Source of the DNA: a virus
Direction: 5' to 3' (one strand)
DNA length: 64,000 nt
Virus genome (UHGV): UHGV-0125682
Shown: one piece after another, positions 9,557 through 60,495 of the stretch
Numbering within the stretch: the first letter of the stretch is position 1
Layout of the letters: each line of letters opens with the position of its first letter
Made by a program: the position numbers and the translations under genes
Notes under the pieces: model-generated
Database searches by the model: none
The model's input: the letters and a program-made list of their open reading frames with translations, nothing else
What the model was told of the DNA's origin: nothing

Positions 9557-9573
9557 GTGTTAGAAAATTAATT
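9557..9573 (-). promoter_or_regulatory. operator-like repeat
   Basis: tgtgttagaaaattaat, with a second partial copy gtttctaaa at 9578..9586. Confidence 0.55.
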
Positions 9574-9641
9574 TGCTGTTTCTAAATCGGAATGTATGAT
9601 CTGCATCATCGACTGAAGTCATCCATTGCTGAAATTTTTAG

Positions 9642-21748: not shown

Positions 21749-21767
21749 TGTGTTAGAAATCTAAAAT
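21748..21767 (-). promoter_or_regulatory. operator-like repeat
   Basis: atgtgttagaaatctaaaat. Confidence 0.5.
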
Positions 21768-21904
21768 CACAATTCGAATGTATTGATTGTGAAGGTAACT
21801 TAACATAGAATTTTCCTTGCTGGTGGGCGGTACCCACGTTTCGCTTGCTGGGCTTGATAGTCACTTATTGGTTATTGTTCGCCCACCAGCATTTAACAAA
21901 TTAA

Positions 21905-26471: not shown

Positions 26472-26485
26472 TGTTAGATGAATGG

Positions 26486-26505
26486 AATTAATTTTCTAAT
26501 ATAAC
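26486..26505 (+). promoter_or_regulatory. operator-like repeat (variant TTTTCTAAT) with inverted half-copy at 26471..26480
   Basis: gtgttagatg ... aattaattttctaatataac. Confidence 0.45.
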
Positions 26506-37811: not shown

Positions 37812-38080
37812 GGGCAGGTGTTCCCTTCCGCAAAGTAGGGAAAACTGCTATCAAGTTCATCACACCATCTGCGATGGTCGTAGCACCAAAACGCCTCCCA
37901 CGGTGCACGGAAATACTTCATCCACCAGGACACTCGATCAGGTATATCTGCTGGTGGCAGTTCTTCTGGCAATAATTTGCCTGATAATTCCCTTTCCGCC
38001 CGCGACAGCATTTTTTTGAGGCTCGCGTTCTCTTTTTCAAGCTCATCTACGCGCACCTGTAATTCAGCTTTCGTTGGCAT
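37796..38080 (-). CDS. hypothetical protein with C-terminal CxxC
   Basis: Start reassigned to MPTKAEL. Confidence 0.4.
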   Translation of the reverse strand: MPTKAELQVRVDELEKENASLKKMLSRAERELSGKLLPEELPPADIPDRVSWWMKYFRAPWEAFWCYDHRRWCDELDSSFPYFAEGNTCPQCRG

Positions 38081-39569
38081 GGTCCGCCTCATGCTTTTCA
38101 GCCACCAGCGGCAATAAAGCCCTGGCCATCTTATGAACCAATAGTGCATCAATAATGCCAAGCGTATGCCCCGGCTTAATGTTTAATGCCGCCTCAAGGT
38201 GACACCTTTCCAGGCCACTTTTCTCGGCTTGTTTATGATGATCTGGTGTAATAACGTCGCCCAAAACACGGCTAATTCTTTCTCGTAATTGCTGGGTGCC
38301 AGCACACTTGATCGCTGTATCGTGGAGACGGTTAACCAGTTCGCGATAAACATGCGGCTTAATTCGGATACGTTCACCGGTGACGCCCTTTCCTGGTGCT
38401 GGCACCGAACTATCCGGAATATCCGGATAGTTGCCTGCCAGTCTACGCAAAACGGCCTTAACAGCCTCAATACGGTCATCATCGCAATTTTCCAGCGTAT
38501 CTATGCGATCGAGCATGATGATGGCGTTATCAATATCAGGATTGCCGGTCCACTCATTACCGCGATTGGATTCGGCAGCCTGGTTGCCGCGTACTGGTTG
38601 ATTATCGGCTTTACCCAGTCTGTCGTTGCTGCATGAATGCCCTTCCAGCAAGGCCAATGCTTGTCGCATGAAATACGCAATATGTTTGCCGTGGTAATCG
38701 TCTTCATCGATGTGAAAAGCGATACTGCGGATGTATTCAATTGCGTTTTCAATGGCCTCCGGCGTTATCGGCGCTGACATATTTTGATTTTGGAGTGCCA
38801 AGACGCGACTGGCATCCTCAACGTTCTTCACTGCATCTGCGCAGTAGTTATAGCGATTGCATTCCACTAACTTCTGCTTGAGATTTTCAATTGCTTGCGC
38901 GACATCAGCCTGTATTTCCGGAACTGGCGGAACGGCTGTCTGCTGCTCTCGAACGTCATTAGTCGCTATCGGTTCTGCTGCCAGCTGACTGGCATATTTG
39001 TTAATGGTAACGATAAGCTCTTGCTCGGCCTCATCCAGACAATCACCGATACCTCGCCTGTCACCGTCAAAATCATCGAAATCGGCACGAATCTTGGCAA
39101 CCTTCTGGATTGCGGACAACACCTCACTAGGAATTACCGGATAGTTGGTTGACGTTTCCGCGATTTCCCGAAAATTATTGGTTGACGAATTCTTGTTTTC
39201 CCGAAAGTTTCCGGACTGAAGCATGGCTTCGCGGCAATCGTTCCAGCCTGTAGCGTATGCAGCCGCTTTGCTGCTGCCTTCAACTGGCGCATCCTGCCAA
39301 TACATTTCTTCCGGCACTACCTGCACCTGAGGGGTGGCGTAGAGTGGAATTCCTCCCCCTCCACCAGAAAATTCATTGCGAGCGTTATACTCACGACCAT
39401 CTGCGTCATCACGCATCCACGCCACCGGTTCTGCTTCCAGCGATGCCAGCGCGATACGAAACACATTGGCAAGCAGGCTGTCTGAAGATTGGTTATCGTG
39501 CGCCGGGTCGCTCAGGAAGCCTGTGATGAATGATTTAATCTCCGCACGTTCTTTGGTAATAGTGGTCAT
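38064..39569 (-). CDS. hypothetical protein (501 aa)
   Basis: Shares a YRELVNxLxD...GTxQLRER segment with 48042..48656. Confidence 0.5.
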   Translation of the reverse strand: MTTITKERAEIKSFITGFLSDPAHDNQSSDSLLANVFRIALASLEAEPVAWMRDDADGREYNARNEFSGGGGGIPLYATPQVQVVPEEMYWQDAPVEGSSKAAAYATGWNDCREAMLQSGNFRENKNSSTNNFREIAETSTNYPVIPSEVLSAIQKVAKIRADFDDFDGDRRGIGDCLDEAEQELIVTINKYASQLAAEPIATNDVREQQTAVPPVPEIQADVAQAIENLKQKLVECNRYNYCADAVKNVEDASRVLALQNQNMSAPITPEAIENAIEYIRSIAFHIDEDDYHGKHIAYFMRQALALLEGHSCSNDRLGKADNQPVRGNQAAESNRGNEWTGNPDIDNAIIMLDRIDTLENCDDDRIEAVKAVLRRLAGNYPDIPDSSVPAPGKGVTGERIRIKPHVYRELVNRLHDTAIKCAGTQQLRERISRVLGDVITPDHHKQAEKSGLERCHLEAALNIKPGHTLGIIDALLVHKMARALLPLVAEKHEADHANES

Positions 39570-39579
39570 GTGTTACTCC

Positions 39580-39843
39580 TTAACCCGCAGTGCTTTCAAC
39601 TGATGAGGGGAACAAAATCTTTTCATCAAACCCTGCATTCATATCATGAACAGCAACACACCAATCCATCGACGAACGATTATCAAGAGCCTCCATGATT
39701 TCATCCATGCGGCGCAGGTCATACAGGTAAATGCTTTTATCGCCAATGGTGTAAAAGCCAATTTTTTTCGGTGATGGACAGCGATCAAGAACGTCCTGTA
39801 ATTCGTTCAACCATGCCCGTTCTTTTTTTGTTAAAGTTGCCAT
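39580..39843 (-). CDS. hypothetical protein
   Basis: Start reassigned to MATLTKK with AGGAGAG RBS. Confidence 0.45.
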   Translation of the reverse strand: MATLTKKERAWLNELQDVLDRCPSPKKIGFYTIGDKSIYLYDLRRMDEIMEALDNRSSMDWCVAVHDMNAGFDEKILFPSSVESTAG

Positions 39844-40205
39844 ATCACTCTCCTTTAGTGCGCAAATGGTTTTTCCAGCGGTTTTGCGCCGCGCTGGGCT
39901 TTTTGCAAAAACCACAATCCATCATCCCGTAATATTTCATCAACCCCATCCGTCGGTTGCTGAGTCTCACCCACTGCCAGACGCCAGGAGCGTTTCTACG
40001 AACTAACAGAATCTTTGCTTTACGGTTTTTCATCGCTTTGCTCTCCTGCGTCTCTTTGCTGCTCGTCGTGCCGCTGCAATACCGGTATGGCGGCGCTTTG
40101 GTGCCGGGATGATGTTGTCAGCCATCAGGACATACGGCTTTGCAATTAGCGCAGAAGCCCAAAAACGAGTCGGGTACGGTAACAAGCCGATACATGCCAC
40201 ACGCA

Positions 40206-40967
40206 TTACTCACCTCCTTTGATGCGAATGCCTGCAGCGCGGATTGCAGCGATGACTTCAGAAACTTTGTATGCCATTACCGTTTGGTAATCATCGTGAA
40301 AATCTGTTCGATGAAGCATGCTGCTACGTTCCGGGAGCGATATTTCCCGAGCATCCAGTTCCTTAACGCGTTCCTCCAGTTCGTAGACCCTGCATTGTTC
40401 TCTATCATCAATCAGATATAACCCAAGACATTCGCTTTCTACCCAACCGCCAAAATCATGATCGTAACGCTCACATGAAAACTCACCGTCACCGTCCTTT
40501 GTTGGAATGGTGTAACTATCTAATGGGCCACCATATGTCGGCACATTTCCCAATGTTGGATGCTCAATCCACATGAAAAATGCACGTCCGGTTATTGGGC
40601 AAATATCTGGCCGCCATTGGTTACGAACAGCCTTGGTTTCGGATAATTCTTCAGCGTGTTGTTTTACTTCCTCAAGCTCAACTCTCAGCTTCCCTACCGT
40701 TAGCGCAATATCCTCGTTCTCCTGATCGCGGCGTTTTATGTATTGCTGGTTTCTTTCCCGTTCATCCAGAAGCGCCAAGACGGTAGCCGGATTGGCTGCG
40801 GCGATGAATTCAGCATCACGAGATTCGTTTTCACTGAACACCATAGCTATTTGCTCATGGTTTATGCCGTCAGTGGAGTAAATCTCATCGTCGAATTCAA
40901 CAGCCCACTTACCTTTCGTAGCCTTCTCTGCCGCCTCACGCAGTGCCTGATAGTCAATCTTGCTCAC
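40206..40967 (-). CDS. Ead/Ea22-like protein
   Basis: N-terminal MSKIDYQALREAAEKAT signature. Confidence 0.55.
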   Translation of the reverse strand: MSKIDYQALREAAEKATKGKWAVEFDDEIYSTDGINHEQIAMVFSENESRDAEFIAAANPATVLALLDERERNQQYIKRRDQENEDIALTVGKLRVELEEVKQHAEELSETKAVRNQWRPDICPITGRAFFMWIEHPTLGNVPTYGGPLDSYTIPTKDGDGEFSCERYDHDFGGWVESECLGLYLIDDREQCRVYELEERVKELDAREISLPERSSMLHRTDFHDDYQTVMAYKVSEVIAAIRAAGIRIKGGE

Positions 40968-41268
40968 TGGCAGCCTCCTTTGCCGGGATTTCTAACTTTT
41001 GAGTGGTTGTATCAAATTCAAACAACTTAACCACGTCATCAAACAGGACATAATCACCATCAGGATCTTCAGTCATATCTGCGCCACAATCCTGACCGCA
41101 CGAGTCGCAACCATCCATATCAAGCTCGTATCGCTTCAGGTTTGCGATATTTGATAAATTCAGCGCCAGTACAGCCAGGTCATAAACCTCTTCGGCAGTG
41201 ACATCGCTGTTCAGTCCCATTTCATGGCGATATATGATTTTTTCTACCCGTTGTTTTGTGATTGTCAT
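40954..41268 (-). CDS. hypothetical acidic protein
   Basis: ORF. Confidence 0.45.
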   Translation of the reverse strand: MTITKQRVEKIIYRHEMGLNSDVTAEEVYDLAVLALNLSNIANLKRYELDMDGCDSCGQDCGADMTEDPDGDYVLFDDVVKLFEFDTTTQKLEIPAKEAASEQD

Positions 41269-41765
41269 TTTTGCTCACCTCCCTGTTCTTCCAGAAAAAT
41301 ACGCATAGCCTCAAGCATCTCTTCGGTGTCATACGGTGACAACTTGTCACGCAGGATGTGTTCAATGCTGTTAATGAACTTGCGGATTGCTTTGCGTTCA
41401 ATTTCAGCCAGGAAAGCGTCGGTGGCTGACATATTTCCTGTTGCCTTCATGGCCTTCAAAATAACCAGAACGCCATCTCGCCCAACCACCTCAGCGATAA
41501 CCTCAGTGTTGTCGCCAACAACATCGCAGAATGCCTGAACTGCCTTACGAGCCAGCTCATTCTCCACTGCCAGCGCCGCGCACTTGGCCTCAAGAGCGGC
41601 AACCACTTCCTGATGGTCTTTGTACTTAACGTATGAGCCGGAGATGTCATCACCTTCGGTGTTTAGCCATGCGTCATTGCAATTCACTGCGTAGGTTCTG
41701 ATGCTCATGTTGATGCTCTCCCGCCCCTGACAGACGCCAGGCCAGTCAATAAAGTATCCGCACAA
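41265..41765 (-). CDS. hypothetical protein (Ea22-like C-terminal region), start uncertain
   Basis: Overlaps an Ea22-like N-terminal fragment ORF (41705..41890) in another frame. Confidence 0.4.
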   Translation of the reverse strand: MCGYFIDWPGVCQGRESINMSIRTYAVNCNDAWLNTEGDDISGSYVKYKDHQEVVAALEAKCAALAVENELARKAVQAFCDVVGDNTEVIAEVVGRDGVLVILKAMKATGNMSATDAFLAEIERKAIRKFINSIEHILRDKLSPYDTEEMLEAMRIFLEEQGGEQK

Positions 41766-41876
41766 TGCCTACCCTCAGACGTGCGCGCAGGATAAATGCC
41801 GTTATGACCCGGCAAAATATATGCTACCCATTCATCTTGCGTTGCCTGTTCCGCCGCCTCGCGCAGTTCTTGATAG

Positions 41877-42578
41877 TTAATTTTGCTCACTGGTTGCCCC
41901 CTGAATACGCTTAAACTCGATTACCCACACCCAAGGATTAGCGTTCCAACTATCTTCGCCATAAATTGATTTCCATAGGCTACGGAAACATGGGTAATGC
42001 TTATCGCCAATGAGGGTCGATTCTGTTGGTGCGCCCTCAGCCCTTGCATCGCATTCGCTGATATCGTTCAACCGCTCAACGCGCACGTTGGTAATTTCCA
42101 GAAGAATGCGCGATGCCCAGCGCGGCATGTGAATTGATGGACACCACCCGCCATCAAATTTTTCATTCACAGTGTGAGGTTTCCAGTCGGCATCATCGGG
42201 TATCGACCACAAGCCGTAATCACCCGGCTTTTGCTCACAACTGGCCCGATAAATCCTTGCTGCGTTCTTCTCATCGCCACGACAAAGGTTGTCGTTCCAG
42301 TCCACACTGCAACCATCCTCATTGCCTAATATCGCCCACGCCTCACGGACCCATATGCGATCACCAACGTTACCGAACGGGCATAAACCATGTTCAGGTG
42401 CATCCATAACGTGGGTATAGACACCATTGCGTTTCTTTGTCGGTTTACGGATAACCAGGCAGTTATCGGCCCTGACATTTTTTACAGGTCGGCGAGTCTG
42501 CGTCTTCCTTCCTTCGAGGATGGCCCTGACCATCTCATCGTTAAAAATCATCCCGCGTTCTTTCATTTTTTGATCCAC
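41877..42578 (-). CDS. hypothetical prophage protein
   Basis: ORF. Confidence 0.5.
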   Translation of the reverse strand: MDQKMKERGMIFNDEMVRAILEGRKTQTRRPVKNVRADNCLVIRKPTKKRNGVYTHVMDAPEHGLCPFGNVGDRIWVREAWAILGNEDGCSVDWNDNLCRGDEKNAARIYRASCEQKPGDYGLWSIPDDADWKPHTVNEKFDGGWCPSIHMPRWASRILLEITNVRVERLNDISECDARAEGAPTESTLIGDKHYPCFRSLWKSIYGEDSWNANPWVWVIEFKRIQGATSEQN

Positions 42579-42582
42579 CTCA

Positions 42583-43578
42583 TCAGTTATTGAAAGTGAT
42601 CACTCCGCGCTCGATGGCGAAGTCAAAAAGCTGGTTAGCGGCTACGTAAAGGCGTATGCCATGTGCTTTTTCCCATGCCCGGACATCGTTTTCTGCGCTT
42701 CTGGCGCAGTCATCGCAAAGAGGAACAGCCCAGCGGTCGTGTTCGTTTAACGAGCGGGCGCGGTACATGAACGGGTGGTTAACTTTGCCACCGCATCCGA
42801 TGCACGGACGAGAAACCACAAACCGGAGATAAGCCGGGCTTTTACCGAGGACCGCTTTTGGTCGGCGCATATAAAGCAGGCCGGAATCCTCATCTACAGA
42901 CAGGTTGACGATCTGCTCTGCGGTTATGTCCACCAGCTCGCGGGTACTGTGCTCCCAGGTGATATCTGATTCTTTCAGCGTACCGGTAGGGATTTCAGTT
43001 TTTGGCTGACAAAATGCAATGCGACCGGCTTCATCTGGCAGCTCATCTTTCAGATTCCGGCGAATGGCCCAAAAAGTGAGTTCAACCATGCTCAGATCGC
43101 GTTCTGGCGGTAGTTTTAACTCGCTCGCAGCCCAGTTCATAACCCAGTTGGCACGATTCAGGGATAACTGGTCGTCCAGCTTGCTGTACCCCTTCATCAT
43201 GTATTCCGCATCATGCTTCCAGCACAGGCGAACGGCAGAGCCGTTATAGAAATGAGTGGTTAGCTGGTGGCTGCAATCGCGCTTATCGTGCGCCTGGCAA
43301 TCGTGGATATTGGAACTTACCCAATGAACAAGCGAATCTTCACCGCCCAACGCGTTAAATACGCGCTCGCTTTGAAAAAACGGTTTCAGAGACTGGTTGG
43401 CAACCAGCGAATAATTCAGATCCACTACGCCATCTGGCGTGTTTTCAGCCTGTTCACGCGGAAGTGGGGAGATAATGAAACGGCGACCTACGCCAATGTA
43501 GTTACTGGTGGGCTTGTCTACCGGAAAGACAGCCACACCAGCTCCGTTTACGAAATGAGGTGTGATTATTGCACTCAT
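42583..43578 (-). CDS. hypothetical protein with Cys-rich C-terminal domain (DUF968-like)
   Basis: C-terminal CIGCGG...CDDC cysteine cluster. Confidence 0.5.
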   Translation of the reverse strand: MSAIITPHFVNGAGVAVFPVDKPTSNYIGVGRRFIISPLPREQAENTPDGVVDLNYSLVANQSLKPFFQSERVFNALGGEDSLVHWVSSNIHDCQAHDKRDCSHQLTTHFYNGSAVRLCWKHDAEYMMKGYSKLDDQLSLNRANWVMNWAASELKLPPERDLSMVELTFWAIRRNLKDELPDEAGRIAFCQPKTEIPTGTLKESDITWEHSTRELVDITAEQIVNLSVDEDSGLLYMRRPKAVLGKSPAYLRFVVSRPCIGCGGKVNHPFMYRARSLNEHDRWAVPLCDDCARSAENDVRAWEKAHGIRLYVAANQLFDFAIERGVITFNN

Positions 43579-43618
43579 AATGTATACCGACTCTGTTTTG
43601 TTCCGAGCGGTAAAATAA

Positions 43619-43656
43619 TATGTTAGAAAACTAAAATCAATGTTCTAACACATTTT
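43619..43656. promoter_or_regulatory. tandem divergent operator-like repeats
   Basis: atgttagaaaactaaaat and aatgttctaacacatttt, upstream of the leftward operon starting at 43578. Confidence 0.55.
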
Positions 43657-43675
43657 GAGTGCGTAAATGATTTGA

Positions 43676-44368
43676 TCAGACTTTAAGCTGCCCTCCCTTC
43701 ACCTGCATTAGCGTCAGATTTCCGCAAAAAACCGCGCCCGTGTCTATGTAGTGCTGATTCCAGTATGCTTTTGGTCTTCGTACCGGTGTGTGCCCAAAGA
43801 TAAAGCGATCTGCGCCTGTGATTTCTCCACCAATGCCATCTATCGAATCACCGACGCGACTGCGCGACCAGACAACATCAAAAAGCGACACATCCTTACC
43901 GAACTGGTACTCTCCACCTGGATAGTCGGCATGGGCTATAACGATAGTTTCATGCCCGGTGTTCAGCTCAATGATATAGGGAAGACGTCTTACCAGCTCC
44001 ACCAGCGCCCTGGCTAATATTTCCCGATCAGCGTCCAGCATGAAGAACCATTGACCGCCATTCATTAGCCAGTTATTCACATTGCCTGCGGGACTTAACG
44101 CATCGATCATTAATCGCTCGTGGTTTCCCATAACCGACCGAAACCAGGGCATCTGCAATAGCTCCAGGCATTCAACATTTTCGGTGCCGCGATCGATAAG
44201 GTCGCCAACCGATATCAGTAAATCCTGCGCCGGGTCAAAATCCACACGATGGAGTTCATTCATAAGTAGGGTGTAGCAACCGTGCAAATCACCAACAACC
44301 CATATGTTTCTGTAGCCTGAACCATCAATACGGCTATATAAATTCACTTCATGCAGCGCCTGGTTCAT
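43676..44368 (-). CDS. Ser/Thr protein phosphatase (PPP family)
   Basis: Metallophosphatase motifs GDLHG, GDLIDRG, GNHE. Confidence 0.8.
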
Positions 44369-44676
44369 GCGGCAACCTTCTCCCGCAGCCAGATACAAAC
44401 CGGGCCATCTTCAGTGTCATGAATAGAGCCAACAAACCATCCTTCGCCCGCTGGTCGCTCTGGTTCCCAGGCGGCAATATCGGGACCATCTGCGTCCAGA
44501 TTAAAATCATCTTCATCCATACTGCGAATAGTCCACTGAAGATTATTTTCCTTCATCCAGGCGTCAAATTCCTCAGTGGATATATATTCACGACCTGCGC
44601 AAAACTTTTCATACTCCGGATGTGTCCAGCAGCCATATTCATCACGTTCTACCGGCATTTCTTTAATTGTGCTCAC
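44365..44676 (-). CDS. hypothetical protein
   Basis: ORF. Confidence 0.45.
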
Positions 44677-44897
44677 TCTTCATCCTCCAAGTCGGCAACG
44701 GCATCCATCACATCAGAACCGCGAATAAACTCAAAAGCACGGCAAGCCATTTCAAACACCTGTTGTTCTTGCGGATGCGGTGACTCCCAATACTTAAAAC
44801 CAGGTCGATGCTCGTAACCCATCATGGAATAAAAATCGCCAGCAAGTTCAATCGCGGCATCAACAAGTTCGCGATTTGTCATCGTCTGTTCTGTCAT
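44673..44897 (-). CDS. hypothetical protein
   Basis: ORF. Confidence 0.45.
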   Translation of the reverse strand: MTEQTMTNRELVDAAIELAGDFYSMMGYEHRPGFKYWESPHPQEQQVFEMACRAFEFIRGSDVMDAVADLEDEE

Positions 44898-45169
44898 TTT
44901 GTTTTCTCCTGTCTGAACATCACTATCATCAGGTCGCCTTTTGTCGCTATCCTCGCTGTTGTGCCTGGTTCAATGCTGCCAAGTTCAAATGCGTCATAGA
45001 ACGCTTCTAATGCCTTCAGGCGTAGTTCCTGTTTGCGCCGTTTTTTCCACTGTTTCAGGAAAATGGAACCCAGCCATCGCCATGTACGGGACATGATGTA
45101 AAGCCAACCGAGAAGTGCCAGACCGGTATTTAGGGCCGTATCGAGCGTTATCGTGGTGTCGATATTCAC
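44894..45169 (-). CDS. hypothetical membrane protein
   Basis: ORF with hydrophobic helix. Confidence 0.45.
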   Translation of the reverse strand: MNIDTTITLDTALNTGLALLGWLYIMSRTWRWLGSIFLKQWKKRRKQELRLKALEAFYDAFELGSIEPGTTARIATKGDLMIVMFRQEKTK

Positions 45170-45414
45170 TGTGGTGGCTCCTGCTTTTCTGCCTTTAATA
45201 CCATGCGAGAACCATCATCCAGCTCCCAATTAATTTCACCGCCTTCAGCCATGACTAGATGCCAAACGAGTTGTGCGGCCTCGTTGGTTACATCACGACC
45301 GCGATCATTGCCGACACGACGTTTTGTTCCATCCCCTAAGTCACGCATTTTTGCCAACACGATGGTTTTTGATAGCGGTGAAAAACCAAGCTGTAGTCGT
45401 GCGGTATTACTCAC
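45166..45414 (-). CDS. hypothetical protein
   Basis: ORF. Confidence 0.45.
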   Translation of the reverse strand: MSNTARLQLGFSPLSKTIVLAKMRDLGDGTKRRVGNDRGRDVTNEAAQLVWHLVMAEGGEINWELDDGSRMVLKAEKQEPPQ

Positions 45415-46052
45415 TGTTTGCCTCCTTTTCGAAGCTGGTCAGCGAACCTATCAGCTGCATCCGCGCAAGCAGAAGCAACGGAATCAAAAAATGGATCATC
45501 TCCGGTATCGCGCATCGTCAAAGCGAATGCCTCCACCCCTTGTGCCTGTATTTCTACAAGGTATGCCTTAGATGTAGTGCTTTTCGCCTCGCCTAATTCG
45601 TTATGAGCGATGTTCGCTATACATGCGATGTCTATATCTGGATGATTAATTGGGCAATGGCTAAGAATTGCCTCAAGTGCTGCTTTTTTGCTTTGGCATT
45701 CCGCCACCATCGCCCCGCAATTGCTTTCATATTCGGCAATACGCTGTTTAGCAGCCTCCAGCTCAACACGCAGCTTCTCAAGCGTTAGAGCCATCTCCAT
45801 GTTCTCGTCCAGCAGTTCAATCACATCAGGATCGCTATCATCAACTACTGTTATGCGCGATTTTTTGTAATGCTCGTCAGCATAAGTTCGTCCAGTTTTG
45901 AAGCATCCGTCGTCCTCCATGCCGGAACAGGCATAAACAACATGTGATCCAGATATGCGCTGCATTGACATTTCCTCGCCACAAACAGAGCATTTAGGCG
46001 CTGGTTTCGGTGAAAAACGTTCACGTAACGTATGATAGTAAAGCTCGCTCAC
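45411..46052 (-). CDS. Ea22-like protein
   Basis: Shared C-terminal ...ADQLRKGGKQ module and coiled coil. Confidence 0.5.
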   Translation of the reverse strand: MSELYYHTLRERFSPKPAPKCSVCGEEMSMQRISGSHVVYACSGMEDDGCFKTGRTYADEHYKKSRITVVDDSDPDVIELLDENMEMALTLEKLRVELEAAKQRIAEYESNCGAMVAECQSKKAALEAILSHCPINHPDIDIACIANIAHNELGEAKSTTSKAYLVEIQAQGVEAFALTMRDTGDDPFFDSVASACADAADRFADQLRKGGKQ

Positions 46053-46846
46053 TGGCTGCCTCCTTTGCGAAGCTGTTCAGCGATATCTTCGAGAACGCCA
46101 TCAGAGAATGAGCGGTCAAAATCGCCTTCCCGCGCATTAGCCATAAACTCAGTAGAGGTAAGAATCATCCGGGCAATATCCGCGGCGTTCTTCGCAGTAT
46201 CATCAATAAAACCAGCTTCCCAAGCAGCCAGCATTCTGTTCGCCACAAAGTAAGCGCCCTCCTTGCGTGCTTCAGTCTTCACTTCATCCAGGAAAGTGTC
46301 GGTCGCAGGAGTGGTTTTTTGTGGTGATAGGGCGATACGAATTGTTTCAAGAGCTGGATCTATTTCCACTGTTGGCACTTTGATAAAACCAAGCTGCACG
46401 CCATTCATAATGAACGTGCGGCGATCCTCACATATCGCCTTCAGTCTCGCATTCTCCGCAGCCAGCGCCGCGCGATTACCCTCCAGCTCTGCAATGCGCT
46501 GTTTTGCGGTATCAAGTTCAATCGATAATTTTTCCAACTGCTCTTTATGCTTCTTATATTCCTGATATGCGTGCCAGGACTGACCTTTGCGCACACTATC
46601 AGTAATATCAGTAATCTGTTCTGGTGTTAGCGTAGTCAGTGGCTGTGCTGGGAAAATCAGCACTTTCCCGGAATCCCAATCAAAACCAGCGTGAATTGAC
46701 TGAACCTCAACTGAGGGTGTTGAACCAATGCTGCCAGGCGAATGAACAACGATCGTTACATCCATATCGCGACGATGGCTGTGGTTGTTGGACAAAATAC
46801 GATTCACCAACTCAGAAAATTTGGAGAATTTCATGCGGAGCCTCAA
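46049..46846 (-). CDS. Ea22-like protein
   Basis: C-terminal ...AEQLRKGGSQ module. Confidence 0.5.
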   Translation of the reverse strand: MRLRMKFSKFSELVNRILSNNHSHRRDMDVTIVVHSPGSIGSTPSVEVQSIHAGFDWDSGKVLIFPAQPLTTLTPEQITDITDSVRKGQSWHAYQEYKKHKEQLEKLSIELDTAKQRIAELEGNRAALAAENARLKAICEDRRTFIMNGVQLGFIKVPTVEIDPALETIRIALSPQKTTPATDTFLDEVKTEARKEGAYFVANRMLAAWEAGFIDDTAKNAADIARMILTSTEFMANAREGDFDRSFSDGVLEDIAEQLRKGGSQ

Positions 46847-47253
46847 TATGCAAAATAGACCGTTGCCACGCCGTTATAGTGATCAAACGATACGGCGTTT
46901 ACTTCATAGCTGGCAGGGAGCTTCGATCCGAGAACATATCCGGGCCACGTTTTCCATGGAATTTCTCTACTCTCACTATCCCCATATACCGTACATCCAA
47001 GTGAACCTACAGCTTCATTAGAACGCGTGCCGCACGTTATGAATCCCAGATTTTGCTTACTGCTCTTAATGGTGATTGAGTGAACGCTGGCTGATGCATT
47101 AGCAGCACGCTGTGCCTGTTGGTTTGCGATATTCGCAGAGTTCGCAGCAGCTACAGCAGCCGTAGTCGCGGCGGTAGAGGCTACAATAGCTGCTGAAGCA
47201 TGCACTTGTTGGATATTCACCAACAATGCCGCGACAAAAATCATCTTCTTCAC
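46843..47253 (-). CDS. secreted protein with signal peptide
   Basis: N-terminal signal sequence MKKMIFVAALLVNIQQVHA. Confidence 0.5.
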   Translation of the reverse strand: MKKMIFVAALLVNIQQVHASAAIVASTAATTAAVAAANSANIANQQAQRAANASASVHSITIKSSKQNLGFITCGTRSNEAVGSLGCTVYGDSESREIPWKTWPGYVLGSKLPASYEVNAVSFDHYNGVATVYFAY

Positions 47254-47738
47254 TTGTCAGCTCCTTTGCGAATCTGTTCCGCCCATTCTTCAAGGGATTT
47301 CTCCGCATATTCACCGGACAGGCCATCAATCGGGTGCGGTTCATTAGCCAACTCTTCTTTCGCTGACAGAATCATGCGTGTAACGTCGAAAACTTCACGT
47401 AAAGACTTATTGATAAATCCGTGGTTGAAAGCAGCAGCAAGACGGCTTGCGGTATAGTTAATCCCCTCGTTGCGAGCCTCCGCACGAATTTCAGCCAGAA
47501 AAGCATCGGTGGCTGGAGTTTCGCTGTGGTGCAGGGCATCGTTGATAATCATTGCAGCAACTCCGGCCTGCCCTGCATCCGTGACCGACACATGCTCAAG
47601 AGTTACAGCCATTGCATGTTTCAGCCCAGCATTCTCCGCCGCCAGCGCCGAGCGTTCTTTCTCAAGTCGGGAAATTTCCGTTACATACTCAGCGTTACGC
47701 TCTGCCAGTTGTGCTGGCGTTAAACCTTCAGACTTCAT
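47250..47738 (-). CDS. Ea22-like protein
   Basis: C-terminal ...AEQIRKGADK module. Confidence 0.5.
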   Translation of the reverse strand: MKSEGLTPAQLAERNAEYVTEISRLEKERSALAAENAGLKHAMAVTLEHVSVTDAGQAGVAAMIINDALHHSETPATDAFLAEIRAEARNEGINYTASRLAAAFNHGFINKSLREVFDVTRMILSAKEELANEPHPIDGLSGEYAEKSLEEWAEQIRKGADK

Positions 47739-48045
47739 GTACTCTCCTTTCGAAATAAACGTACTGATTAATCATGCTCAAGGGCATTTCGAGTTTTTCT
47801 GCGATCTCACGGCGGGGAACACCACACCGATGAAGCTGCCGTGCCAGTTCTATATCGCCCTGCCGGTATTTGGCTGACGGGTGAAAGTCTCCTTTCAGAA
47901 TCATGCAGATCCGCAGTTGCCGCGCTTTGGTTCTGACAGCACTACCGGTACGCCCGATCAGCCTCCCAATACTCTCGACTGTCATAGTCCCGGCGCACTG
48001 GCGGAGTATCATGATTTCTGCCCTTCCCCATCCCCGCCAGCTCAC
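47728..48045 (-). CDS. hypothetical protein, possible HTH
   Basis: ORF. Confidence 0.4.
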   Translation of the reverse strand: MSWRGWGRAEIMILRQCAGTMTVESIGRLIGRTGSAVRTKARQLRICMILKGDFHPSAKYRQGDIELARQLHRCGVPRREIAEKLEMPLSMINQYVYFERRVHEV

Positions 48046-48656
48046 GCAGAACTCCTTCTAACCAAAAGAACGCCATCTTCAGAAACAACGTTGCAGGACT
48101 TCAGGTAATTCATTGCCTCTTTCGGTAATGGATTCTTTGGATCGGCGTTTGCCAGGGATTTCGATAACCTCATGATAAATTTGATCATTACCTTCTGGCG
48201 GAGCTTGTGCTCATGAGATAAAGACAGGTAATAGGAAATGGTATGGGCTAAACGCTCACGAAGCTGTTCTGTGCCGTGATATACAGCAGCGATATCACGC
48301 AGTGCATTGACCAGTTCCCGGTAAATATGCGGAGCAACCTGGCATTCAATGTTGGTTGGTGACTCATAAATTACAGTCAGCCCCAGCTTTTCAGCCAGCG
48401 CGTGCTCTGCACGAGCACCAATCGATTCCTCCCATCGATTGAGCAAGTAGATCGCATCAGCAGAACGCACCATTGCCAGGCAAATATCCATGTATTCACT
48501 CTGACAAAGGCCACCAGGTAACACAGCTGGATTCAGAACGATATGCCCTTCAGCCATCAGCTCGCTCGCTTTCGCATTAAACGCCGCACGGTTGTAGTCT
48601 GGATAACCAGTCATCGGCCCCGCGATGTAAATTTTCAAAACACGTCTCACCATCAA
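48042..48656 (-). CDS. nucleoside 2-deoxyribosyltransferase-like (DUF1937/DUF4406-type) protein
   Basis: N-terminal KIYIAGPMTGYPDYNRAAF signature. Confidence 0.5.
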   Translation of the reverse strand: MMVRRVLKIYIAGPMTGYPDYNRAAFNAKASELMAEGHIVLNPAVLPGGLCQSEYMDICLAMVRSADAIYLLNRWEESIGARAEHALAEKLGLTVIYESPTNIECQVAPHIYRELVNALRDIAAVYHGTEQLRERLAHTISYYLSLSHEHKLRQKVMIKFIMRLSKSLANADPKNPLPKEAMNYLKSCNVVSEDGVLLVRRSSA

Positions 48657-48845
48657 AATTTCCCCAGCATCGTGACGAAAAACATCAGCACGGCAAAAAG
48701 CTCAATACCTAATTCAAGTAGCGCCAACGCCCCGAAAAAAAACACATAGAACAGGCCAATCTCATTCACAGATGGCTGGTGGATCGCACTTAAAGCTATA
48801 AGCATCATGTCCTCCAAACATTTATCAGTGATGATATTAATGTTT

Positions 48846-48865
48846 TGTGTTAGAAAATCAATTTT
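48846..48865 (-). promoter_or_regulatory. operator-like repeat
   Basis: tgtgttagaaaatcaatttt upstream of ref-like gene. Confidence 0.55.
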
Positions 48866-48925
48866 GAATATCTAACTGCTTTGATCAATCATAGAAAAAT
48901 CGCTGAAAAGTAAGAGGCAGCCATC

Positions 48926-49504
48926 ATGCAGAAACAGAGCTATTGGGAGAAACAGAGACAAAAAGCCATGCAAAAATTGGCTGACCCAGCCTGGCGAGAG
49001 GAACAAAGGGCAAAGCGCCTTCAACAAGCTCAACGCCAGCAGCAGCGAGCGAGAGAAAAAGCCGCATCGCCTGAATATCGGCAAAAGAAAATTGAAAAAG
49101 CAAAGCAATATGAACAGCGGAGAAAAGATAAAGCTGTATCCGCTCCGTCCAAAAAAACACGCACGTCACGCGGCCTGAAAGGCAGATCACTCACAGCCGA
49201 TGAACGCCGGATACAGACCGCTATCGGTGCTCTCCCCTGCATTGCCTGCCATATTCACGGGCAACATAGCCCAGTGGTATCCCTGCACCATATCTTCGGG
49301 AGAACGGCAGAGAACGCGCATAAATATGTCCTCCCTTTGTGTAAATGGCACCACCAGTACGCAGCGCCAGCCGAGGTCAGAGAACAATATCCCTGGCTGG
49401 TCCCTGTTCATGCTGACGGAAAAATAGGCGGAAAAGCAGATTTCATGCGGCACAATGCCGATGAAATGACGTTGTATCAGATGGCGATTGAGTTGATAAA
49501 TTAG
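48926..49504 (+). CDS. ref: Ref-like HNH endonuclease
   Basis: Basic Lys/Arg/Gln-rich N-terminal 80 aa then His/Cys cluster (CIACHIHGQHS, HHIFGR, CKWHH); operator upstream. Confidence 0.6.
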   Translation: MQKQSYWEKQRQKAMQKLADPAWREEQRAKRLQQAQRQQQRAREKAASPEYRQKKIEKAKQYEQRRKDKAVSAPSKKTRTSRGLKGRSLTADERRIQTAIGALPCIACHIHGQHSPVVSLHHIFGRTAENAHKYVLPLCKWHHQYAAPAEVREQYPWLVPVHADGKIGGKADFMRHNADEMTLYQMAIELIN

Positions 49505-49518
49505 TTTTCTAACATTTT
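49499..49518 (+). promoter_or_regulatory. operator-like repeat
   Basis: attagttttctaacatttt. Confidence 0.5.
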
Positions 49519-49835
49519 AAGTTGAATTGAAAAACTCTCCGATGTACATTCACTACCGATTGGCACACCGGTCAACTTTTTGAGACAAACTGTTTAGTTT
49601 TTCGTATTATTGCCTCCGCCATACCTATGGCGGTGCAATATAGGTGGCTGAAAAGCCCCCGTTGACTCACGGTGTTCCAGCCTTTATTGCGCCGCCACCA
49701 GACCGTGGAACAGTCGATGGCGGCTCCGAAAGCAAGGAGTCACAACACTATGAACAACTACAGTCTTTTCCCATCACTCGTCTTCCACCACTCACGCGAT
49801 AATCTGCATTCTTTGCTCGCGCCGGGGGTGTCAAA

Positions 49836-50003
49836 ATGACTGTTCGCTACCTCAACTTTCAAATCAAGAACATTACTGGCGGTTGCTATGACTGGTTTGT
49901 CACTCTCGGAAAAGAAGTGATCACCGGGAAGCTGGATGAAGTGAAAGCTAAAGCAATGGCCTACGCCTGCAAGCAAGTCAGGAAGAAATCCGCCAAAGCA
50001 TAA
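49836..50003 (+). CDS. small hypothetical protein (55 aa), not in ORF track
   Basis: ATG ORF followed by terminator-like hairpin plus T run at about 50112..50132. Confidence 0.35.
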   Translation: MTVRYLNFQIKNITGGCYDWFVTLGKEVITGKLDEVKAKAMAYACKQVRKKSAKA

Positions 50004-50315
50004 AACACTGACTGTTGCGCCCTGGCATTATCGTGGGGTATATTTCTACGGCACCTTAGAAAAACGGGTGCCGGGATTGGAACCCCGGATAATGCAAAAG
50101 GCGACACAGACGCCGAAAGCGTCTTTTTTTGTGTCATGCCATCGCACAGCCATACGTAGCGTTTAGCTCAGAGATCAATGGTAGTGCTGGCTGGGCTGCC
50201 GAAAGGCAGGCCGGTTCCCTTTTGCGCCGGTAGTTCCAACCCAGTCAGTGCTACCGCCATTGAGATTGGAACCTCACGCGGTAGCTCCTTAAATTAGCAA
50301 AAGGAGGCTGCCAAT

Positions 50316-60457: not shown

Positions 60458-60495
60458 TGTGTTAGATAATTAATATGTATTTTCTAACATAAATG
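60458..60495. promoter_or_regulatory. pair of operator-like repeats
   Basis: tgtgttagataattaat and gtattttctaacataaatg upstream of rdgC-dmt. Confidence 0.55.

Follow-up and report, generated by a model that had tools for sequence, protein, structure and literature searches.

The closest described relatives of the genes considered here are ea22 and the exo-xis genes of phage lambda and ead of P22, all early-left accessory genes; Ea22 proteins match the Pfam family Ead_Ea22 and have a mosaic build comprising an N-terminal segment, a coiled-coil and a variable C-terminal domain (PMC10834534, PMC7093339). In the lambda type the N-segment is short, the central coiled-coil is long and the C-terminal domain stands apart, and the protein is a tetramer that favours lysogeny. 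Every Ea22 protein ends with the residues K/R-G-E, a feature listed by Dydecka et al. as 'significance unknown' (PMC7093339). According to the boundary-sequence model for the modular evolution of phages (PMC3233612 and PMC2327257, citing Susskind & Botstein 1978 and, for HK620, Clark et al. 2001), the points at which otherwise unrelated modules are exchanged carry short conserved junction sequences. Here we describe a stretch of 64,000 nucleotides (nt) from the virus genome UHGV-0125682 (the window), in which positions 40206-48656 form a minus-strand operon, mostly of overlap-coupled genes, in a D6-like P1-type phage-plasmid. The block includes five loci of the Ea22 family, and a short sequence, the linker, recurs at its gene junctions. 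We consider it likely that the locus is a mosaic operon in which the linker, made up of an Ea22 tail and an initiation site, serves as an exchange point, and in which one Ea22 gene has been split by duplication of a TG dinucleotide.

The linker reads cagcttcgcAAAGGAGGcagccaGTGAgc on the coding strand, as in the junction gaacagcttcgcAAAGGAGGcagccaGTGAgc. Its DNA, cagcttcgcAAAGGAGGcannCAGTGAgc, encodes ...QLRKGGxQ up to the stop codon (in one example the upstream protein ends ...EQLRKGGSQ), and it carries the Shine-Dalgarno sequence AAGGAGG, separated by about 6 nt from a GTG that shares bases with the TGA stop. The linker is thus the end of the upstream gene, 7-9 codons long, and contains the ribosome-binding site and overlapped start of the downstream gene. 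The original prediction, made from the sequence without database searches, had been right that the repeat is real; the element is coding, however, and not a non-coding spacer. A search of the window with the pattern TCACTNNNNNCCTCCTTT, allowing at most one mismatch, gave four matches (at 40964, 45411, 46049 and 47250) where 0.05 were expected, all of them inside the block. The full copies lie on the minus strand at 40962-40983, 45409-45437, 46047-46075 and 47248-47276. The remaining one of the five copies originally listed, placed at 41877, is a partial one on the same strand and is really at 41885-41906; it keeps the GTGAGC start region and shares only GCTCACTGG.TGCC, its AAGGAGG core being replaced by GGGGG. 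The coordinates first given for the copies are right to within about 10 nt. What recurs is a core of 18-22 nt: the complete 29-mer that had been quoted as the linker sequence is exact once in the window, at 46047-46075, and no other copy of it is found there within 3 mismatches.

Why should unrelated genes be preceded by the same coding tail? A survey of 116 sequences (the window and 115 fetched loci) yielded 49 distinct junctions, with downstream genes of at least 8 types and an RTGA overlap in every one of the 49. The glycine codon is GGA in 48 of these junctions, compared with 20% of glycine codons in the bodies of the same genes, and the lysine codon is AAA in 45, compared with 56%. The arginine that adjoins the lysine is encoded by six different codons, and the residue following the glycine may be G, V, A or S, nearly always with a codon that begins with G. 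The near-invariance of GGA and AAA beside so variable an arginine codon points to a constraint on the nucleotides AAAGGAG(G) of the Ea22 tail rather than on the peptide alone. The arrangement AAGGAGG-N6-GTGA is that of a coupled junction, in which a Shine-Dalgarno sequence precedes by 5-9 nt a start codon sharing bases with the upstream stop, and both the use of this Shine-Dalgarno sequence and translational coupling across the linker appear probable from the layout. A simple explanation, and a small new point, is that the terminal K/R-G-E or RKGGxQ motif of Ea22 proteins would be the dual-coded ribosome-binding site of the downstream gene.

Two observations weigh against this. The 49 junctions are related by descent, so that the 48 occurrences of GGA do not represent 49 independent events. 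Further, lambda ea22 (NC_001416, 29847-29870 region) keeps the AAAGGAGaGTGA tail, as ...atcAAAGGAGaGTGA, before a mere 5-codon open reading frame (ORF), showing that the tail can persist without a coupled gene. As a separate observation, the end of lambda ea22, ...ggcattcgcatcAAAGGAGaGTGA, is the same junction as that of the gene at 40206-40967, and has the look of a vestigial junction from which the coupled gene is absent.

Comparison of the block with lambda shows both the likeness and the extent of elaboration. The original prediction had called for at least four Ea22/Ead-like genes; Pfam (PF13935, gathering cut-off 27 bits) and PHROG 368 together give five loci, one of them split. These proteins follow a common layout of variable N-domain, coiled-coil, 'ATDAFLAE' hinge box, variable C-terminal domain and fixed tail. 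The comparison with lambda ea22 that had been suggested singles out the 253-residue Ead_Ea22 protein of 40206-40967 (minus strand; Pfam 108.9 bits, 4e-31) as the closest in the block (BLASTP 1e-27): it shares with lambda Ea22 the N-segment, the central helix (LLDERERNQQYIKRRDQENEDIALTVGKLRVELE) and the tail AGIRIKG(G)E, and differs in its C-terminal domain. The C-terminal domains of the block are unrelated to the solved lambda one. In contrast with the single ea22 gene of lambda, the block has five tandem or near-tandem paralogs, and these reside in a plasmid-prophage under P1-type immunity rather than under pL. A sequence search of the PDB with the lambda-like Ea22 protein gave no match, and a single-sequence AlphaFold model shows a helix for residues 60-111 (predicted local distance difference test score, pLDDT, 67-84); the overall mean pLDDT of 52 is too poor for interpretation beyond the helix.

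The other members, all on the minus strand, depart further from this pattern. The gene at 45411-46052 encodes a 213-residue Ead_Ea22 protein (Pfam 48.5 bits, 1.8e-12) and forms a cassette between two direct linker copies. The 162-residue protein of 47250-47738 (phrog_614, phrog_368) is without the Pfam N-domain and comprises a coiled-coil box, a PATDAFLAEI box, the C-terminal domain and, as its tail, EQIRKGADK. At the DNA level, the C-terminal half shows 96.5% identity to the C-terminal module that plasmid p91 carries within an intact Ead_Ea22 gene. The 265-residue protein of 46049-46846 is a hybrid, in which an N-domain of phrog_6026 is followed by the Ea22 coiled-coil, a TPATDTFLDE box, the C-terminal domain and the tail EQLRKGGSQ, with a phrog_368 match. 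Neither of these last two proteins has a Pfam match, and their link to Ea22 is through PHROG 368/614 and the shared boxes. The fifth locus, the split gene, is discussed below.

Evidence that the linkers are places of exchange comes from the positions at which similarity to related loci begins and ends. Window positions 38001-50000 were compared by BLASTN with 16 related loci, and the ends of high-scoring segment pairs (HSPs) were collected, those at locus edges being excluded. Twelve boxes, occupying 9.7% of the block, had been fixed in advance from the repeats within the window: the five terminal linkers, three 'ATDAFLAE' boxes (41400-41428, 46280-46308 and 47487-47515) and four coiled-coil 'ALAAEN' boxes (41558-41602, 45695-45739, 46450-46494 and 47630-47674), all on the minus strand. 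The 104 HSP ends in the block fall into 34 clusters, and 21 of these lie within 12 nt of a box where about 3.1 would be expected, an enrichment of about 7-fold (binomial P 1e-13; none of 5000 random placements scored as high) that also holds for HSPs of at least 95% identity and at least 250 nt. Four more clusters lie at other gene junctions. The modular shuffling at linkers that had been proposed from the repeats is thus supported, and it extends beyond gene boundaries, since the two internal boxes are recurrent exchange points within the Ea22 genes themselves. An alignment of five Ea22 genes illustrates this: they are 97-100% identical for 488 nt as far as the ATDAFLAE box, then become unrelated, and reconverge in the terminal linker, over the last 25 or so nucleotides.

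A cassette is also seen to come and go as a unit. The plasmids pRHB39-C21_3 and pAPEC201603 are without the gene at 45411-46052, and the gap runs exactly from linker to linker, the left flank from 46052 being followed by one linker and then by the right flank from 45414. This join is seamless, with 37 nt common to both flanks. Conserved short sequences are thus found at the module junctions, and breakpoints coincide with them. From these comparisons, the linker and the two internal boxes are best described as marking where modules are exchanged, much as the boundary-sequence model would have it. There are two differences: the linker here is coding and bears the ribosome-binding site and start of the downstream gene, and equivalent boxes occur inside genes, at the borders of domains.

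Several of the same data can be read differently. The linkers could have been kept by the constraints on the protein tail and on initiation, with the joints made by illegitimate recombination and then sorted by selection, as in the model of Hendrix, so that their coincidence with the boxes is a by-product. The lambda tail without a coupled gene would fit such an origin, and many phage mosaic joints have no conserved boundary sequence (PMC3233612). Nine of the 34 clusters lie at neither a box nor a gene junction (for example 42030, ~40669 and ~40778), and the breakpoints at 45171 and 46839 are likewise away from the repeated boxes. Moreover, the end of an HSP necessarily marks the end of similarity, so that conserved boxes will mimic junctions whatever the origin of the joint. 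All these points weigh against homologous exchange at the boxes. On the other hand, illegitimate joining followed by selection does not readily account for the seamless linker-to-linker join in pRHB39-C21_3 and pAPEC201603, and selection at gene boundaries leaves the in-gene sites that contribute to the 7-fold enrichment unexplained. The box lengths of 25-45 nt also fit the minimum of about 30 bp required for RecA and Red recombination (PMC2327257). On this evidence we regard the Hendrix-type origin as unlikely.

The breakpoint at ~42030 deserves mention in its own right. It lies inside the gene at 41877-42578, away from any repeated box, and recurs in seven comparisons. This gene is a hybrid, the 3' 150 nt matching P7 upf86.8 (98%) and the 5' part matching D6-like plasmids.

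For exchange at the linkers and boxes, the following sequence of events may be proposed. Nearly every gene start in the operon overlaps the preceding stop, as GTGA or ATGA, and with the Shine-Dalgarno sequence and overlapped GTG supplied by the linker, whichever gene stands downstream would be translationally coupled. Every family member has the same tail (25-45 nt) and two internal boxes (29-45 nt), and by this recurrence they could act as patches of homology. In cells that harbour both the plasmid and lambdoid prophages, homologous recombination would cross over at these patches, the candidate enzymes being phage recombinases of Red or Erf type or the RecA of the host, which the product of the neighbouring ref gene might stimulate. 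Whole genes would be inserted, deleted or swapped, and N-terminal, middle and C-terminal modules recombined. One product would be the N-module with the TG duplication, in which the Ea22 N-domain is destroyed; the coiled-coil and C-domain part of this split gene may still arise by re-initiation. The recombination enzyme, the repressor control considered below and the expression of the second ORF are each proposed here from the DNA sequence.

The split gene itself comprises two minus-strand ORFs, 41705-41890 and 41265-41765, which overlap in different frames and had been suspected of being one interrupted Ea22 gene. They are one Ea22 gene split by a +2 duplication of TG. At 41761-41764 the window has one TG more than intact alleles (CATTG[TG]CGG in the alignment), reading CATTGTGCGG where intact Ea22 genes of 633, 639 and 726 bp have CATTGCGG. 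The insertion is not a multiple of three, and its removal restores a single ORF of 207 residues, which Ead_Ea22 matches once, at 67.6 bits, from position 1 to position 134 of the 139 in the profile. The frameshift is thus confirmed, with two corrections: the site is a dinucleotide duplication and no homopolymer, and it is not private to this assembly. The first ORF (ORF1, 41705-41890) matches Ead_Ea22 over profile positions 1-45 (48.7 bits) and phrog_14804 end to end (1.7e-35); its 61 codons encode 43 native N-terminal residues and 18 out of frame, and its stop codon is part of an ATGA that also holds the start of the second. ORF 41265-41765 scores 17.3 bits over positions 38-134, under the Pfam cut-off. 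Read from the ATG at 41708, an in-frame Met codon of the original protein with GGGAG 9 nt upstream, the second ORF (ORF2, 41265-41708) has 147 residues and encodes what is left of the N-domain, followed by the coiled-coil and ATDAFLAE boxes and by a C-terminal module with EEQGGEQK at its end.

Could the extra TG be an error of sequencing or assembly in the window? The 61-nt TG allele is found exactly in 34 independently assembled complete E. coli genome records, compared with 122 for the intact form, and in 19 IMG/VR contigs, compared with 74. An allele identical in so many records is inherited and not a read error, and a dinucleotide duplication in place of a homopolymer also counts against one. 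The frameshift is real and widespread, occurring in chromosomal prophages (for example of O55:H7 RM12579 and of O111:H2) and in P1- or D6-like plasmids, and an error is very unlikely.

A second possibility, that a programmed -1 ribosomal slip restores full-length Ea22, has in its favour that a -1 shift inside the out-of-frame stretch of 19 codons would restore the frame and that the allele is common. No X XXY YYZ heptamer or homopolymer occurs between 41764 and 41705, however, the nearest sequence being the non-canonical T TTA TTG, and most copies of the gene are plainly in frame. With no slippery site in this interval, programmed frameshifting was rejected, and we give it next to no credence.

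The more serious alternative is that the split form is functional. By this account ORF2 would be translated by re-initiation at the ATGA as a coiled-coil protein without the N-domain, and the 61-residue ORF1 peptide might have a role of its own. The idea that these are two genuinely separate genes is half borne out, since NCBI's Prokaryotic Genome Annotation Pipeline (PGAP) annotates the allele elsewhere as two coding sequences with an ATGA overlap and not as a pseudogene, and the ORF1 product has its own PHROG. The TG allele makes up some 15-20% of copies and is spread over lambdoid prophages and P1-like and D6-like plasmids. In all 24 complete carriers ORF2 is open, with the ATGA overlap and the GGGAG 9 nt upstream, and none of these carriers has a second lesion in the split gene. 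N-less members of the family also exist, such as the paralog at 47250-47738. Against this, the frameshift interrupts a conserved N-domain mid-way (Pfam profile positions ~38-45), the shared core of the allele is nearly invariant, and the C-terminal domain of lambda Ea22 alone fails to reproduce the phenotype (PMC10834534). The open ORF2s, which tell against a simple disrupted gene, could reflect repeated replacement of the downstream module from intact donors and not selection. The 24 carriers encode 8 distinct ORF2 proteins in at least 6 different 5' contexts, implying either that the frameshifted N-module has itself been shuffled or that the mutation has recurred; when linked variants were compared with respect to a single or a recurrent origin, a core of about 250 nt proved nearly invariant. 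We regard a functional split as doubtful, and annotators should treat the ORFs of 61 and 147 codons as one disrupted Ea22 gene.

The neighbourhood of the internal Met codon shows other small changes. Two intact loci have in-frame deletions of 6 and 12 nt (window ~41700-41712 equivalent) that remove exactly AACATG(AGCATC), the ORF2 start of the TG allele, making this site a small indel hotspot.

What, then, is the block as a whole? The original prediction saw a lambdoid-type block embedded in a P1-like backbone. When the block and its flanks are compared with the plasmids of PLSDB, E. coli pUTAK-25-1 and a sister record come out best, with 80% of the query aligned at 97.6% identity; phage D6 aligns to 53% of the query at 95.5% identity, and P7, P1, RCS47 and SJ46 cover 12-17%, chiefly through the ppp segment (~88% identical to P1). 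The region is syntenic with D6 orf88-orf100 and with many plasmids. Next to ref there follow a small ORF, a DUF4406 gene, a DNA-binding protein gene, variable Ea22 cassettes, DUF4752, two small genes, ppp, DUF968 and a second set of variable cassettes, an order shared by D6 and many D6-like plasmids. Every D6-like plasmid opened, like D6 itself, has this scaffold with differing cassettes in the two variable slots.

A single recent lambdoid insertion into a P1 backbone would be consistent with the 97-99% identity of pieces of the block to Shiga toxin (Stx) and other lambdoid phage DNA, and with the presence of matching segments in 3006 of 5426 complete E. coli genomes, mainly in the chromosome. 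The left part, 39500-43700, is found in one piece in no complete E. coli genome. The same scaffold at the same position in D6 and in dozens of D6-like plasmids, with the cassettes alone varying, indicates a standing variable region and not a private insertion. Corresponding genes are found in the wider family, with ppp present in P1 and an Ead-like gene at the equivalent place in P7. Nor is there a compositional step at the block edges (G+C fraction 0.46-0.52), and no repeat was found flanking the block. A single insertion is therefore very improbable. Judged by its synteny, the block is the lineage's resident variable region, highly mosaic and with a new combination of cassettes, and not a one-off lambdoid insertion; the type of region is already known, and this cassette combination is new.

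The flanks agree with this placement. To the right is ref (48926-49504, plus strand), followed by two RNA genes of the immI region, isrK and the C4 antisense RNA, and to the left is a 501-residue gene (38064-39569) whose D6 counterpart is annotated as pmgU-like; the D6 gene descriptions used here are the notes in GenBank record NC_050154. The block is syntenic with D6 orf88-orf103, has ref/immI on one side and the pmgU-like genes on the other, runs on the strand opposite to ref, and is in all probability an early accessory ('ea/ead-type') operon. It shares with D6 the site by ref and immI, the strand and the gene order, at 95-98% identity over the parts shared with D6 and D6-like plasmids, and it differs in its set of cassettes, with 53% of the block aligning to D6 and at most 80% to any PLSDB plasmid. 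A paper on a D6-like Salmonella plasmid (PMC6799933) does not discuss the region. P7 offers a more distant parallel. Its Ead-like gene upf88.3, in the corresponding region of a P1-family phage, lies beside the C1 operator Op(hea), which is annotated as predicted to regulate the 'hea operon', and P7 is 98% identical to parts of the window (40210-40777 and 41886-42140). It differs in having a single Ead-like gene, in the neighbouring pap, sht and hdm genes, and in the type of operator sequence.

The RNA genes to the right were identified with Rfam, isrK (62.5 bits) at 50051-50129 and the C4 antisense RNA (76.7 bits) at 50174-50261, both on the plus strand; together, to the right of ref, they represent the immI (c4-icd-ant) region, a usual feature of P1, P7 and D6. 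Rfam gave no match within the block.

The transcription of the operon can be considered from its gaps. All ORFs of the block, and every credible ORF from 48808 to 40030, are on the minus strand, and most junctions besides the linkers are also overlaps, of 1-11 nt. There are only two real gaps, one between ref and the operon start and the other at 43579-43675, the only sizeable intergenic gap within the block. Both carry a palindrome, GTTAGAA-N15-TCTAAC (half-site ~GTTAGAAAAnTAATTT), at 48849-48876 and 43622-43649 respectively. The window has seven such sites where 0.94 would be expected, the others being 9559-9586, 21752-21779, 26473-26500, 49486-49513 and 60461-60488. The TTAGA core resembles the P1 C1 operator, and the palindrome is a candidate operator for the D6-type immunity repressor. 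The site at 48849-48876 overlaps a weak leftward -35/-10 pair recognised by eye (TTGATT-16 nt-TAATAT), and the copy in the second gap suggests a further repressor-controlled start ahead of DUF968. The block may thus probably be divided into two repressor-controlled leftward units, starting near 48850 and near 43650. Two considerations count against such control: the basis for the operator assignment is the recurrence of the motif, and a sigma-70 consensus scan gave no leftward promoter at either gap. Terminator-like matches in the scan were not meaningfully placed.

The remaining genes, all on the minus strand, include those named from the sequence in the first place (a PPP-family phosphatase, a Cys-rich DUF968-like protein and a deoxyribosyltransferase-like protein in addition to the Ea22/Ead-like proteins), and Pfam and PHROG identify every one of them as such. 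The block as first delimited begins with a DUF4406 or nucleoside 2-deoxyribosyltransferase-like protein at 48042-48656 (Pfam 1.1e-33, 116 bits; phrog_355, 5.9e-43; phrog_21459). A small hydrophobic ORF of 51 residues at 48653-48808, a homologue of D6 orf88, has a stop that overlaps the DUF4406 start, so that the operon begins about 150 nt past the right edge (48656) of the block; going by this overlap, the 51-residue ORF is the true first gene. The DUF4406 protein is followed by a small DNA-binding protein with a helix-turn-helix at 47728-48045 (Pfam and PHROG, the latter as 'transcriptional regulator, D5-like'). Between two Ea22-family genes lies a 136-residue protein with a signal-peptide-like N-terminus (46843-47253; phrog_8805, without a Pfam match), whose GTG start overlaps the upstream TGA inside a linker; a secreted or envelope protein from an early operon is possible.

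Four small conserved genes at 44365-45414, recognised by Pfam and PHROG and joined by GTGA or ATGA overlaps, encode DUF7446 (45166-45414), DUF4752 (44894-45169) and ORFs of 74 (44673-44897) and 103 residues (44365-44676). The PPP-family Ser/Thr phosphatase, of the NinI or lambda-phosphatase type and like P1 ppp, occupies 43676-44398 (Metallophos 4.8e-15, 56.9 bits, with a cut-off of 21.5; phrog_246, 1.6e-108). Translation is likely to begin with the ATG at 44368, in an overlap with the upstream stop; the gene is annotated as 693 bp in relatives. The Cys-rich DUF968 or HNH-type protein at 42583-43578 (Pfam 6.5e-45, 153.7 bits; phrog_96) corresponds to D6 orf98, annotated as 'similar to P1 pdcB'. 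The hybrid gene at 41877-42578 encodes a 233-residue protein of phrog_874, relatives of which are annotated as ASCH-domain proteins. A 104-residue protein of phrog_3126 at 40954-41268 does not belong to the Ea22 family, yet its last codons contain the linker, here ggcaaaggaggctgccaGTGAgc, with the next Ea22 gene directly following. None of the block's proteins is recognised by NCBIfam, and PADLOC gave no matches for ten of them, leaving a defence-island reading unsupported; it was dropped.

Two further features lie at the margins of the operon. A module of about 50 residues is common to the DUF4406 protein (residues 106-155) and the 501-residue protein of 38064-39569 (residues 402-450; BLASTP 1e-10), with the consensus PH[IV]YRELVN.L.D.A....GT[EQ]QLRER (phrog_21459), and represents another shuffled domain. 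At the distal end, a 58-residue ORF at 40030-40206 (minus strand) follows the last Ea22 gene through a TAATG overlap; it matches phrog_13831 over its full length (1.1e-41) and has a very Arg/Lys-rich tail, …AARRAAKRRRRAKR.

The importance of these findings is modest. The block shows DNA traffic continuing, at 97-99% identity, between plasmid-prophages and the chromosomal lambdoid prophages of E. coli, those with Stx included. It also offers an unusually clean case for an old debate, whether mosaic joints of phages are made at short boundary sequences or arise anywhere at random and are sorted by selection afterwards, in that boxes of 25-45 nt predict the breakpoints and one gene has been gained or lost exactly between two linkers. 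For the Ea22 proteins, the K/R-G-E or RKGGxQ ending that is unexplained in the Ea22 literature has a suggested reason in the Shine-Dalgarno sequence of the downstream gene. A bolder proposal, which we offer as a tentative possibility, is that the Ea22 tail is a selected, portable junction element, at once a C-terminus, a ribosome-binding site with its start and a preferred point of crossover. If so, the Ea22 arrays, in P1/D6 phage-plasmids as in lambdoid prophages, would amount to a cassette system that shuffles itself, the TG-split allele, at 15-20% of copies, would be a side branch with a functional two-protein form, the K/R-G-E motif would be explained, and the boundary-sequence model would have a clean natural case.

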